This document shows, piece by piece, positions 53,432-58,117 of a stretch of 64,000 nucleotides of DNA (within the stretch, counting starts at the first letter, position 1; every line of letters starts with the position of its first letter). The stretch is from positions 1 through 64,000 of IMG/VR virus record IMGVR_UViG_3300006120_000019; one strand, written 5' to 3'. The notes under the pieces were generated by a model. That model did not search any database. It saw nothing but the letters and a program-made list of their open reading frames with translations, and was not told where the DNA came from. This stretch comes from a virus. Lineage: Duplodnaviria; Caudoviricetes. Position numbers and translations under genes: made by a program.

Positions 53432-54580
53432 ATGAATCATGATCTTTTCTATGCACCTATAACTTACAAAAACTTACATTATATTCATCAGTGGGTAGGA
53501 GACAATCTCAAGATCAATTATGTAGCAAATATTTCTGATCTATCTGAATTGTGTAAAAAAATTATTTTGATTGACATAAGAGATGCTAATTTTCAAATTG
53601 ATTTAATTAAAAAATTGGTAGAACAAAAAAATTACTTTGTGTTTTTTGAAGCCTGGGCCTGCAACAAAGCCAATCAACAACTAACAGATCTTGTGGCAGA
53701 TTTACCTGCCAACACACCATTTGCAGTGATTGCCAACACTGATGATCAACGCAGCAACGGACCTTGTGTAAATCTACGTGCTTTTTATTTTATTACCATG
53801 TCTATGCCCAACCGGTTGAGATCAGAACATCTAATAGAACATATATTTGATCCTGTACCAAAACCATTTACTTTTTCATATCTCAATGGGCGTTCAAGAC
53901 CACATAGAAAACATTTATGGCATCTGCTTAATCAACAAGGGTCATTGGATAGATCTTTGTGGTCTTGGTGGGACGATAGCAGTGCAACCAACAGTTTATC
54001 AGCTGAAACCAATGATACAATTCCTAGACAAAGTTTGGATAGCAAGTACGAGAGTGCATTTGTAGATATTGGGCACAGTATGCTACAACAGTATGATGCC
54101 AAGCGATATTATGAATTTCGCATACATCTAAATCAAGGGCACTGGATTGATGGGCATATTGTGCCAGAAATGTACAAAAATACTTACTTTAGTGTAGTAA
54201 CCGAATCGGTTACAGAGTTTAGTCCTTTTTTGACAGAGAAAATATTCAAACCTTTGTTGGCAGGACATCCTTTTATTGTGTTAGGCAGTGCAGGATACTA
54301 TCAAAAATTAAAAGAGTTGGGTTTTCAAACATTTGATACTGTGATTGATGAATCGTTTGATCTTGAACAAGATGTAGTCAAACGTTGTGCTATGATTGCC
54401 GCACAAGTTGACAGGCTTTGTAATATAAATCTAGCAGAATTTCATGTCAAAGTACGTGACATTTGTGAACACAACAGACAACACTATATCAATAATCAGT
54501 GGAGTGAGTGGTTAAAAGTGCACAACGAACTCAATGAGTTCTTTAATCAAGTAATAACTGAGCACAACAAAAATTTATAA
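53432..54580 (+). CDS. GT-like protein (family of 9531..10622)
   Basis: FSYLNGRSRPHRKHL and YFSVVTES...FLTEKIFKPLLAGHPFIVLG...GFQTFDTVIDESFD. Confidence 0.65.
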   Translation: MNHDLFYAPITYKNLHYIHQWVGDNLKINYVANISDLSELCKKIILIDIRDANFQIDLIKKLVEQKNYFVFFEAWACNKANQQLTDLVADLPANTPFAVIANTDDQRSNGPCVNLRAFYFITMSMPNRLRSEHLIEHIFDPVPKPFTFSYLNGRSRPHRKHLWHLLNQQGSLDRSLWSWWDDSSATNSLSAETNDTIPRQSLDSKYESAFVDIGHSMLQQYDAKRYYEFRIHLNQGHWIDGHIVPEMYKNTYFSVVTESVTEFSPFLTEKIFKPLLAGHPFIVLGSAGYYQKLKELGFQTFDTVIDESFDLEQDVVKRCAMIAAQVDRLCNINLAEFHVKVRDICEHNRQHYINNQWSEWLKVHNELNEFFNQVITEHNKNL

Positions 54581-54907
54581 CTGATCTGGCCAGTCTCGGA
54601 ATAGTGCATGTTGTATATTACCTGACACAAATTGATTAAAACTTTTGTGTTTTTCTTCTAGCTCACCTTCCAGTGGTGCCACACGTTTGAATGCCGAATC
54701 CATTTGTCCCATGTCTGTAAACTCCATGATAATCATCCACTCAGGCATGTCGGCAATGCTGCGAAATCCCATTTTGCATCTGGTGATCCTGTATGATTCC
54801 ATACGACCTTCTGCGACCAGATGATCAAAAAAACTTTTCATACCATTGACCCATTCTAGATCAGTGATGTCTCCTTCTTTATCTGCCCAAATTGTATATA
54901 AATCCAT
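54575..54907 (-). CDS. Small dimeric alpha-beta-barrel-like protein (DUF6614-like)
   Basis: MDLYTIWAD...HLVAEGRMESYRITRCKMGF...EW.IIMEF.DM.QMD.AF. Family recalled from memory, not searched. Confidence 0.55.
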   Translation of the reverse strand: MDLYTIWADKEGDITDLEWVNGMKSFFDHLVAEGRMESYRITRCKMGFRSIADMPEWMIIMEFTDMGQMDSAFKRVAPLEGELEEKHKSFNQFVSGNIQHALFRDWPDQL

Positions 54908-54908
54908 A

Positions 54909-56036
54909 TTAACCTCTATTTAAAAAATAATCTTGCATGACACCATCTCTGTGCAAGTCGCTGGTCACACAATGTATGCCACCGTCCCAGAAATATCTAT
55001 GTCTGAACGGAATCACATGTGCAGTGATATTGAATCTTGCCAAGGCATCAAACACTGTTTTATTGTAGTTAAACACAATGACATTTTTTGGATCAATGAT
55101 CAACATGTTGACATCAAACACTGTTTCTTCCACATAACCAGTCCAATGAGAGAGCCATGTTTCAACCGTGTTGACCACATCTTGATCATGTTCAAATCCC
55201 GGTATCCACCAACGTCCTTGATTTTGTTGTTTTAATTTTGTAAATTCTTTTACTGCATTCCAATGTTGCTCAGGAAGATACACGACTTCCCAGCCTGGAA
55301 ATGTATCAGCGTATGTGGCCACATCTTTGGTACTAATAATTAGTCCAGGACAAACAGGACAATATGTACCATCACTGTGTCCTCCAGTATTTACAACATG
55401 ATTACGTGTGAGTGTAAATTCTAAATTGATGTCTTTCTGCAATTTGTCAATGTCTTGACTATAATCAACAGTACCAAAATATAAATCTTTACCAATTCTG
55501 GCCATCATGGCACCATTGACTATAGATGGGTTTACATGATGTTGTATTTGATTTCCTTGTGCTGAAATGTGTTGTAGTATGTCTTGATAACAGGCGGAAT
55601 AGTTAAGATCAAATTTAAATTGATCAACACATTCATCTTGCAATGATTTAGGCAACGCAAAAAAATCTTTTCGTTTATGAATTATTGGCCAATTTTTTTC
55701 TCTAACATTGTTGTACGACAACACTAGATCAAATTCTGTATTGGTATAAAATGTATTGCCTACCATTATCATCCAATCTCTAGGAGTCATCGGCGGTGCC
55801 ATAAACTTATTGCATTGATCTACCGTGGCAGCAGGTAGATTCGGTCTTAGTATTTTGACATCAAATTCTTGAAGTTTTTTAATTATGTTTTGAAAATCTT
55901 CTTCTGTTTCGTATGCAATGCGTTCAAACAATGATCGCACATGTGGTACAGTGATCCATGAATAAAATTCAGGCGGATAACTACGGCCCACAACACACAC
56001 TTTGAGTGGATCCCAATGTTGATAAACTGAGTACAT
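54909..56036 (-). CDS. Amidinotransferase (AGAT/StrB1-like), copy 2
   Basis: WDPLK..VVGR, TPRD, GHSDG, VNML.ID and GGIHCVTSDLHR. The catalytic His and Cys motifs are intact. Confidence 0.9.
   Translation of the reverse strand: MYSVYQHWDPLKVCVVGRSYPPEFYSWITVPHVRSLFERIAYETEEDFQNIIKKLQEFDVKILRPNLPAATVDQCNKFMAPPMTPRDWMIMVGNTFYTNTEFDLVLSYNNVREKNWPIIHKRKDFFALPKSLQDECVDQFKFDLNYSACYQDILQHISAQGNQIQHHVNPSIVNGAMMARIGKDLYFGTVDYSQDIDKLQKDINLEFTLTRNHVVNTGGHSDGTYCPVCPGLIISTKDVATYADTFPGWEVVYLPEQHWNAVKEFTKLKQQNQGRWWIPGFEHDQDVVNTVETWLSHWTGYVEETVFDVNMLIIDPKNVIVFNYNKTVFDALARFNITAHVIPFRHRYFWDGGIHCVTSDLHRDGVMQDYFLNRG
54924..55166. repeat. Direct repeat, copy A (two 98-bp blocks identical to 56492-56734)
   Basis: 54924-55021 equals 56492-56589, and 55069-55166 equals 56637-56734 (offset 1568), compared by eye. 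Confidence 0.85.
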
Positions 56037-56480: not shown

Positions 56481-57613
56481 AATCTTTCTGGAAAATAATC
56501 TTGCATGACACCATCTCTGTGCAAGTCGCTGGTCACACAATGTATGCCACCGTCCCAGAAATATCTATGTCTGAACGGAATCACATGTGGTGTAATACCA
56601 TATCGATCTAGTGCATCAAAAACAGTTTTATTATAATTAAACACAATGACATTTTTTGGATCAATGATCAACATGTTGACATCAAACACTGTTTCTTCCA
56701 CATAACCAGTCCAATGAGAGAGCCATGTTTCAACTGTGTCTGTTACTGCATGATCATGTTCAAATCCTGGTATCCACCAACGTCCTTTGTTTTTTTCTTT
56801 AAGAGTCATAAAAGATGACACTTGCTCCCAACTTTGATTGGGTAAGTACACGACTTCCCAACCTGGAAATGTGTCAGCGTATGTGGGCACATCCATTAGA
56901 CTTATTATCAGTCCTGGGCACACTGGACAATATGTGCCATCGCTGTGTCCACCAGTATCTACAATGTGATTTCTAGTTGTGGTAAATTCAGACTCAGCAT
57001 ATTTTTTAATTTCGTCTATGCCTTGGCCATATTGTTCAGTACCAAAATATAAATCTTTTCCAATTCTTGTGACCATGGCACCGTTTAACAAAGTGTAAAA
57101 TAAATTTACTACTTTGTTTCCTTGATTTTTGATGTGTGAAAAAATATCATTATAACAATCCTTAGTATTAGCTAAACGCTGATATTTTTTATATTCATCC
57201 TTGCAACGCAATTTTATACTGTCTGGTAAATGTTCTATATCTTCTTCACTGTGACATTCTGGAAAGCCAATTTCTTTAAAATTATAGTAAAAATGACCAA
57301 AATTATATGAGTTATAATTGTTGTAAAAAGTTTCACCAAGCATTATGGTATAATCTCTAGGAGTCATTGGCGGAGGAATATATTTTCCGTTTAAAAACTG
57401 TGTACTTGGTAAGTTAGGACGTAAAACTTCTACATTGAAACTTTGTAATTTTTTTATAATAGCTTGATAATCTTCTTCGGTTTCTATTGCTATACGTTCA
57501 AATAATTTTCTCACATGCGGTACAGTGATCCATGAATAAAATTCAGGAGGATAGCTACGCCCGACTATGCATACTCGTAACGGATCCCAGTGTTGATAAA
57601 CGGAATAAGTCAT
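56477..57613 (-). CDS. Amidinotransferase (AGAT/StrB1-like), copy 1
   Basis: Same catalytic motifs (TPRD, GHSDG, GGIHCVT). Start reassigned to ATG 57613 (ATGA overlap). Confidence 0.9.
   Translation of the reverse strand: MTYSVYQHWDPLRVCIVGRSYPPEFYSWITVPHVRKLFERIAIETEEDYQAIIKKLQSFNVEVLRPNLPSTQFLNGKYIPPPMTPRDYTIMLGETFYNNYNSYNFGHFYYNFKEIGFPECHSEEDIEHLPDSIKLRCKDEYKKYQRLANTKDCYNDIFSHIKNQGNKVVNLFYTLLNGAMVTRIGKDLYFGTEQYGQGIDEIKKYAESEFTTTRNHIVDTGGHSDGTYCPVCPGLIISLMDVPTYADTFPGWEVVYLPNQSWEQVSSFMTLKEKNKGRWWIPGFEHDHAVTDTVETWLSHWTGYVEETVFDVNMLIIDPKNVIVFNYNKTVFDALDRYGITPHVIPFRHRYFWDGGIHCVTSDLHRDGVMQDYFPERL
56492..56734. repeat. Direct repeat, copy B
   Basis: Partner of 54924-55166, lying in the 3' ends of the two amidinotransferase genes. 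Confidence 0.85.
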
Positions 57614-58098
57614 GATCTTGGATCTCGTCGATGTTTGAACAATGATTTCAAGTATTCTTTGGGCCATGTGTCATAAAAGCCTTTGGCAGCTATTTGTTTA
57701 GCTCGAGCGTCTAAATCGCTTAAACTTTGTACCAGAGCCAAAGCATAAGTGCCTTGATTCATTGTCACGCCGTTGACTATTTCTGGATCTGCAGGATGAT
57801 CTTCCAAGGCCAGCATGTCCTTGCGCAACAAACATTCTTTGTTGGCCTGTGAAACGCTAGAACTAAACAGTTCGTAACTCCATTCTGCAGGATCATACGC
57901 ATACACAATGACTTCGTACTGGCCCATGCCCCACTGACTGCGATTTTTTAAATCATAGTAAGGATCCATGCCTGTAAAAATTGCCACTGTGTTTTTTAAT
58001 CTAGCACTGCGAGCATAAGGACAAGGCGGCCAGCCTCCCAGTGCTGGATGTGGAACTTCTACAAAGCGTTCACTCCAGGCTAAAATATCTCGTCGTAC
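57610..58098 (-). CDS. DUF1415-like protein
   Basis: W...FVE.PHP.LGG.PPCPYAR, DHP, Y.LALVQ.L..L...A..L...GFYD.W. The ORF track gives 58116 as the start, which fits MLDQ; the 58098 boundary is approximate. Confidence 0.55.
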   Translation of the reverse strand, partial: VRRDILAWSERFVEVPHPALGGWPPCPYARSARLKNTVAIFTGMDPYYDLKNRSQWGMGQYEVIVYAYDPAEWSYELFSSSVSQANKECLLRKDMLALEDHPADPEIVNGVTMNQGTYALALVQSLSDLDARAKQIAAKGFYDTWPKEYLKSLFKHRRDPRS

Positions 58099-58117
58099 TT
58101 GTTCTTGATCTAACATA

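Follow-up and report, generated by a model that had tools for sequence, protein, structure and literature searches.

Why would a bacteriophage place, directly behind genes of its baseplate, a run of genes whose enzyme families all handle arginine or guanidino groups? This question is raised by positions 1 to 64,000 of the IMG/VR virus record IMGVR_UViG_3300006120_000019 (the window, 64,000 nt of a 73-kb record rated ~21% complete), in which five genes, here called g1 to g5, follow gp26 and a gp51-like gene. A protein with a predicted fold like that of AglA is encoded by g1, amidinotransferases by g2 and g4, a short transferase domain related to ATE1 and Bpt by g3, and a DUF6614 protein by g5. 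Since the record is rated only ~21% complete and related contigs reach 340-345 kb, it is a piece of a giant T4-like phage, so far uncultured; genomes of this group are estimated at ~350 kb. Comparison of related loci shows that the conserved core of the cassette is g1 plus g3, with g5 a frequent add-on and the amidinotransferases optional. We read the string as a late operon for arginine and guanidine chemistry that is attached to baseplate-hub genes and serves one common pathway, a proposal for and against which we see the chances as evenly divided. It is the most economical proposal because arginine or guanidino groups are what every enzyme family in the operon handles, and the undescribed phage pathway of guanidine or aminoacyl modification put forward in the preliminary description of this DNA remains the best reading.

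The ATE1/Bpt-type domain of g3

On profile evidence, g3 (56480-56037, minus strand, 147 aa) is a real but truncated catalytic domain of the ATE1/Bpt family. A profile of close g3 homologues only (A1) found no match in the PDB. A HMMER search of 1.8 billion representatives gathered 145 g3 relatives, and the wider profile built on these (A3) matched ATE1 arginyltransferases only when run against 177,635 PDB sequences, the best matches being KlAte1 (7wfx, 5.5e-11) and ScATE1 (7tif/8e3s, 6.5e-8). The relatives that pass the Pfam ATE_C cut-off comprise short forms of 142-154 aa and long forms of 225-268 aa. Two relatives at 41-49% identity to g3, P0123 and P0138, score 28.8 and 29.8 bits, and the long forms score up to 33.8 bits. 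The AlphaFold model of g3 (predicted local distance difference test score, pLDDT, 83) has a GNAT fold, for which VIA-align returns simply GNAT, while its top Foldseek matches are rich in aminoacyl-tRNA transferases (A-PGS/MprF, Sba18/Sbb17, FemX, and ATE1). The possibility that g3 is an ordinary acetyl-CoA GNAT was rejected on the specific ATE1 homology. The earlier view of this middle gene as a stand-alone domain like the C-terminal GNAT of ATE1/Bpt is therefore upheld by the PDB matches of profile A3 and by the relatives above the ATE_C cut-off, and the Foldseek comparison agrees with it.

The residues expected to contact the aminoacyl-tRNA point in the same direction. In the A3 alignment, the family-invariant A77, W96, G106, E113, and K134 of g3 fall on identical residues of KlAte1. 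The functionally assigned pairs are W96/Trp260, E113/Glu277, Y133/Tyr303, and K134/Lys304, with W96, E113, and K134 invariant in the family. In KlAte1, Trp260 contributes to Arg-tRNA binding and Tyr303-Lys304 belong to the active site, while Glu277 is the acid needed for the arginine moiety in Ate1, at a position where the leucine-transferring Bpt has Gln (PMC9351520). Other positions of the pocket are not matched, with C91, T109, and L125 of g3 standing opposite S255, S273, and Y289 of KlAte1. The likeness of g3 to ATE1/Bpt consists of a homologous catalytic GNAT core in which the tRNA-binding Trp, the Tyr-Lys pair, and the arginine-pocket Glu are kept, and g3 probably uses an aminoacyl-tRNA, likely Arg-tRNA, as its donor.

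The difference from ATE1/Bpt lies in what precedes this core. ATE1/Bpt proteins are ~235-520 aa long versus the 147 aa of g3, which starts at the strand directly after the ATE_N region, so that the ATE_N domain is absent together with its Zn/Fe-S cysteines and its pocket for an acidic N-terminus. In Ate1, the ATE_N domain holds a Zn-Cys4 site as well as the pocket, formed by Arg80, Tyr25, and Tyr87, into which the acidic N-terminus of the acceptor fits (PMC9351520). Since the carrier of the acceptor pocket is missing, the acceptor of g3 need not be a protein N-terminus. The long phage relatives (225-268 aa) do have an N-terminal domain, which is cysteine-free and gives no ATE_N match. No fusion of g3 to a longer protein was found among proteins of 470-2000 aa, a range that a ~315-aa fusion to g1 would escape, and none was seen in an all-length search of the representatives. 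One 963-aa protein with 14 g3-matching repeats (P0184) is an exact tandem repeat of one ~68-aa unit and is most likely an assembly artefact.

The specific homology of g3 to the protein-modifying ATE1/Bpt family raises the alternative that it arginylates host or phage proteins, at their N-termini or on side chains, either creating N-degrons or modifying the virion or its baseplate. The g1 protein would then be a surrogate ATE_N, that is, an acceptor-binding or regulatory subunit, with the amidinotransferases guanidinating lysines or working on their own. Such tagging would suit an operon coupled to late baseplate genes. A distant amidinotransferase homologue (26% identity) from cyanophage S-SCSM2R has been detected in the virion proteome (PMC12801897), and haem is a known regulator of Ate1 (PMC9351520). 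However, the Ate1 acceptor pocket and the Zn-Cys4 site both reside in the domain that g3 lacks, and the fold of g1 is enzyme-like, with an invariant Cys, and unlike ATE_N. We consider protein tagging unlikely, though not far-fetched.

Distribution of the cassette genes among phages

We compared ~180 related loci, among them 80 IMG/VR loci found via g3, 23 distant viral loci, and 78 new amidinotransferase loci. Hundreds of contigs from uncultured phages contain the cassette. Throughout the 80 close loci, gp26, the gp51-like gene, g1, and g3 occur in the same order wherever the locus reaches far enough, and g1 and g3 are adjacent in all of them (80/80). The g5 gene is missing in ~9 of the 80. 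Amidinotransferases are absent from 56 of these loci, precede g3 in 17, follow it in 3, and flank it on both sides in 4; the double form present in the window is rare. Sequence identity among the close loci is 75-90% for g3 and 80-96% for g5 versus ~50% for gp26. Of 23 loci with more distant ATE_C-like genes from other phage groups (27-50% identity), 18 have a g1-like gene next to the ATE_C-like one. It may lie upstream, downstream, or in convergent orientation, with co-oriented and swapped arrangements among these loci, in some cases again beside gp26 and once behind ribonucleotide reductase genes. In genome collections, the g1 family is found on phage-like contigs as g1-g3-g5 or as g1-g3-amidinotransferase. 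NCBIfam and PADLOC gave nothing useful, and a literature search found no report of a phage ATE-like gene.

This distribution makes g1 and g3 an almost obligatory gene pair. Co-occurrence in other phages, which the preliminary description had named as a check, is seen, with g1 and g3 as the constant part. That description had called the cassette arginine-centred; the unit is not centred on the amidinotransferases, as they are lacking in most of the close cassettes, occur on either side of g3, and are found outside the cassette in 41 of the 78 amidinotransferase loci.

Both amidinotransferases are nevertheless genuine, as had been proposed. The paralogue upstream of g3 is g2 (AT1; 57613-56477, minus strand, 378 aa), for which the true start is the ATG at 57613 rather than that of a longer open reading frame (ORF) from 57667, and the paralogue downstream is g4 (AT2; 56036-54909, minus strand, 375 aa). 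The two are 68% identical, and the PRD, HxD, and GGxHC motifs are present in both. All seven matches of the family profile (A4) are amidinotransferases, among them AGAT (1.9e-16), HsvA (3.7e-13), StrB1 (3.5e-12), and SxtG (1.5e-11), and a single-sequence phmmer search with g4 recovered HsvA (8e-8) as well as AGAT, StrB1, and SxtG. Residues D87, H220, D222, and C356 of g4 are invariant in 29 homologues and correspond to AGAT Asp170 (guanidine-binding), His303, Asp305 (guanidine-binding), and Cys407 (the nucleophile). The nucleophilic Cys, the His, and both guanidine-binding Asp residues of AGAT, StrB1, HsvA, and SxtG are therefore kept in the phage proteins. The phage family differs from these enzymes in its low identity to them (25-35% at most), in its variable core, which hints at acceptors other than theirs, and in being multi-copy, with a duplication here.

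The history of this duplication can be read from the two genes. Near the 3' end, two tracts (g2 codons ~294-326 and ~344-373) are 98-100% identical in nucleotide sequence, with a longest exact match of 98 nt, while identical residues at the N-terminus are encoded by different codons. The combination of near-identical 3' tracts and differing N-terminal codons indicates recent gene conversion between paralogues that arose by an older duplication. The proteins diverge most at residues ~90-180, where identity falls to 30-40%, and these variable cores suggest that g2 and g4 have two different amine acceptors.

Within the 78 amidinotransferase loci, 36 have the gene inside the 3.5-kb cassette and 41 elsewhere, often in tandem arrays of 2-3 paralogues (loci L145-L198, for example L180, L154, and L197). 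Some of these noncassette genes lie on the same contigs as the cassette but >100 kb away. The L197 array stands beside ORFs whose N-termini, inspected by eye, resemble those of an NAD-dependent epimerase, GTP cyclohydrolase I, and QueD. Among isolate phages, searches with the amidinotransferase matched only S-SCSM2R, along with single-cell marine virus contigs. The S-SCSM2R protein, ORF266, annotated as a glycine amidinotransferase (PQ898602.1), matches at 26% identity (4e-24) and likewise comes from a large T4-like phage. Its context differs from that of the window, with KdsA/KdsB and 2-oxoglutarate (2OG)-oxygenase genes and no g1, g3, or g5 nearby.

The last gene, g5 (54907-54575, minus strand, 110 aa), had been called DUF6614-like and is a full-length DUF6614 protein, matching Pfam PF20319 over residues 1-109 of 110 with 77.6 bits (cut-off 25; E 9.6e-22). 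Conservation of g5 is extremely high, with 66 of 110 positions invariant in 14 homologues and 86% identity even in a phage with a g3 identity of just 37%. A g5 profile gave only an insignificant match to Cld/HemQ in the PDB (E 0.35), which we do not use as evidence. The sole mention of DUF6614 found in the literature is the predicted assignment of an anti-Druantia gene from phage DruSM1.

The variable presence of g5 and of the amidinotransferases invites the explanation that there is no common pathway and that the stretch between the gp51-like gene and the module after it is a hot spot at which unrelated accessory genes insert. Under this explanation, g5 would serve in counter-defence, the amidinotransferases would be independent metabolic genes, and g1 and g3 would have separate roles. 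A protein of phage DruSM1 that is predicted to be DUF6614-like is reported to act against Druantia type I (bioRxiv 10.1101/2024.04.14.589459), and the placement of amidinotransferases on either side of g3, with many copies elsewhere, also fits a collection of independent insertions. Against this, g1 and g3 remain neighbours where the gene order has changed, where identity is down to 27-40%, and at a different genomic location, and translational coupling links the genes. Arginine or guanidino groups are the targets of all three enzyme families, and amidinotransferase insertions are strongly enriched in the cassette, which at 3.5 kb of ~350-kb genomes holds 36 of the 78 loci. We regard a chance assembly of this kind as distinctly unlikely.

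The fold of g1 and the proposed pathway

For g1 (58116-57610, minus strand, 168 aa), the informative comparison is structural. AglA is the single outlier among its fold matches and has the same topology, while the weak background matches, mtIF3 and RlmL, are common to g1 and AglA. In the g1 model, a sheet of four strands has three helices on one side and two on the other, the order of elements being a1-a2-b1-a3-b2-a4-b3-b4-a5-L2; this is the "sandwich" fold. It was described as new for AglA, a YqcI/YcgG enzyme that has a Cys44-ligated haem and N-hydroxylates the guanidine of AMPn-Arg (PMC12866846). Cys32 of g1 is invariant and lies in a PCPYA(R)xA motif just ahead of helix 2 (35-40); D106-H107-P108 and Glu112 are invariant as well. 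In 21 YqcI/YcgG proteins gathered from genomes, what seems to be the corresponding place reads FPCVGAKSA, which is similar to the PCxxA(R/K)xA motif of g1, and hhalign of g1 against these members pairs the cysteines, weakly (P 0.004 versus 0.017 for the reversed control). From the modelled structure, g1 is a probable cysteine-ligated haem oxygenase, the haem ligation being deduced from structure rather than from assignment to a sequence family.

Sequence searches with g1 are less telling. The g1 profile yielded chance matches only among PDB sequences. Against DUF6875 (PF21780), g1 scores 15.5 bits (cut-off 24.5), and its relatives come just below the cut-offs, with 17-24.3 bits for DUF6875 and 22.5 bits for DUF1415. 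The label DUF1415-like given to g1 in the preliminary description stands to the extent of this distant, sub-threshold relation, but the protein is better described by its AglA-like fold, that of a thiolate-haem guanidine N-hydroxylase.

Homologues of g1 occur in other settings as well. A lone homologue with 54% identity is found on a 6.9-Mb contig of Oscillatoria sp. PCC 10802 (L108:4998-5507), where the 5 kb around it hold neither g3 nor g5 nor an amidinotransferase. Distant g1-like genes (~24% identity) in metagenome-assembled genomes of Burkholderiales, Verrucomicrobia, and Caulobacteraceae (L114, L115, and L116) belong to a conserved gene set with an ORF of 608-616 aa, judged by eye to be carbamoyltransferase-like, a small ORF, and an ORF of ~350 aa.

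The relationship between g1 and g3 finds its closest known counterpart, by analogy, in the AglC/AglA pair of argolaphos biosynthesis. AglC, together with ArgRS, tRNA, and arginine, produces AMPn-Arg, and AglA then N-hydroxylates its guanidine (PMC12866846); a GNAT-type tRNA ligase is annotated in the argolaphos cluster of Streptomyces monomycini (PMC8976061). AglC and AglA combine a GNAT-type Arg-tRNA ligase with a small thiolate-haem enzyme of the sandwich fold, and g3 and g1 present the same pairing of folds. The settings differ, since g1 and g3 belong to a phage late operon without phosphonate genes whereas the argolaphos genes form an actinomycete biosynthetic cluster. In addition, g3 is assigned to the ATE1/Bpt family, and g1 is shorter than AglA.

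On the common-pathway reading, g3 would take a basic amino acid, most likely arginine, from a charged host tRNA and join it to an amine acceptor. Without a partner that contributes a pocket of the ATE_N type, this acceptor would not be expected to be the acidic protein N-terminus that is used classically. As an AglA-type haem enzyme, g1 would probably oxidise the guanidino group of the product or the substrate of g3. With arginine as the amidino donor, the g2 and g4 enzymes would produce guanidino compounds and so feed or diversify the pathway in this phage while being dispensable in most relatives, and g5 would be a frequent accessory. Families, folds, conserved residues, the coupling of the genes, and their co-occurrence are observed, and from them we infer the tRNA donor, the binding of haem, the order of the steps, and the class of the acceptor, which may be a small molecule, a protein, or a component of the cell envelope.

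Several observations weigh against this pathway. Taken alone, g3 scores 15.2 bits (E 0.034) against Pfam ATE_C (PF04377), for which the gathering score is 25 bits. Pfam YqcI_YcgG (PF08892) has no match in the record even at E 10, nor has DUF1415 (PF07209), and g1 is ~75 residues shorter than AglA. No redox partner for g1 was identified. Its invariant Cys32, His107, and Asp106 could instead be the triad of a thiol enzyme. In the amidinotransferases, Asp254 of the AGAT triad is not conserved, being N174 in g4 and P, N, S, or C among the homologues in a part of the alignment adjacent to a gap. The absence of these enzymes from 56 of 80 cassettes and the location of 41 of 78 elsewhere may mean that they are unrelated tenants of a recombination-prone site, and part of the g1-g3 adjacency could be inherited synteny beside gp26. 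Isolate phages, searched at both the DNA and the protein level, yielded no relative of the window, of g3, or of g5. A pathway in which g1, instead of binding haem, acts as a thiol enzyme (Cys32-His107-Asp106/Glu112) or as a carrier that takes the aminoacyl group of g3 or processes its product would accommodate the invariant Cys32, Asp106, His107, and Glu112 and the weak sequence link to YqcI/YcgG, but we hold it to be very improbable. No fold match other than AglA is clear, the topology of the two is identical, and the Cys of AglA seems to sit at the equivalent point ahead of helix 2, in a similar PCxxA(K/R)xA motif.

A more far-reaching and speculative reading, which we would not expect to prove correct, is that g1 and g3 form a split enzyme that puts an arginyl or N-hydroxy-arginyl group derived from host Arg-tRNA on an amine of a protein or of the cell envelope late in infection, with the amidinotransferases adding guanidino marks. 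If true, viruses would have a tRNA-dependent modification system not seen before, and for the first time a natural ATE-family enzyme would be known to act without ATE_N. To our knowledge, ATE1/Bpt enzymes have been described only as two-domain enzymes that tag proteins. Here, a minimal ATE-type catalytic domain occurs in thousands of uncultured aquatic phage sequences, nearly always with an AglA-fold protein as its partner. Should the two work like AglC/AglA, phages would divert charged tRNA to nonribosomal arginine chemistry, at a time and genomic place that would be those of tail and baseplate assembly. With only two genes, such a pair would lend itself to the study of tRNA-dependent ligation and of guanidine N-oxidation in a compact system, and it would give the DUF6875/DUF1415-like and DUF6614 families a function. 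The core differences between g2 and g4 in the window would provide a direct handle on acceptor specificity.

Layout of the operon and neighbouring genes

The five genes had been described as co-oriented, joined by ATGA overlaps or gaps of 0-1 nt, and placed right behind gp26 and the gp51-like gene, and every one of these junctions can be read in the sequence. The stop of the gp51-like gene is separated by 1 nt from the ATG of g1, ATGA overlaps join g1 to g2 and g2 to g3, and the gaps are 0 nt between g3 and g4 and 1 nt between g4 and g5. The head of this co-oriented string is formed by gp26 and the gp51-like ORF (58118-59172, minus strand). The gp26 gene (59172-58333) is identified by Pfam T4_baseplate (3e-14) and by the baseplate hub family PHROG_150 (2e-15), and the gp51-like ORF, of 93 aa, comes after it; the end of gp26 and this ORF overlap by 67 nt in different frames (58333-58399). 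Consensus scans found no excess of promoter-like or terminator-like sites within the operon, with sigma-70 and terminator hits at background, and no T4 late-promoter motif TATAAATA near it. Because the junctions are tight and there is no internal excess of promoters or terminators, the string from gp26 to g5 reads, from its layout, as one late operon. The 64-kb window contains no tRNA genes.

Other genes lie on the plus strand beyond g5. A few kb from the operon are an ORF with a weak radical-SAM-like match (50855-51724, 20 bits, below the cut-off) and a weakly GDSL/SGNH-like ORF (52176-53006). A 382-aa gene (53432-54580) converges on g5, the two stops overlapping by 6 nt. It has no Pfam, PHROG, or PDB match and is 86% conserved beside the cassette in another of the compared loci (L008).

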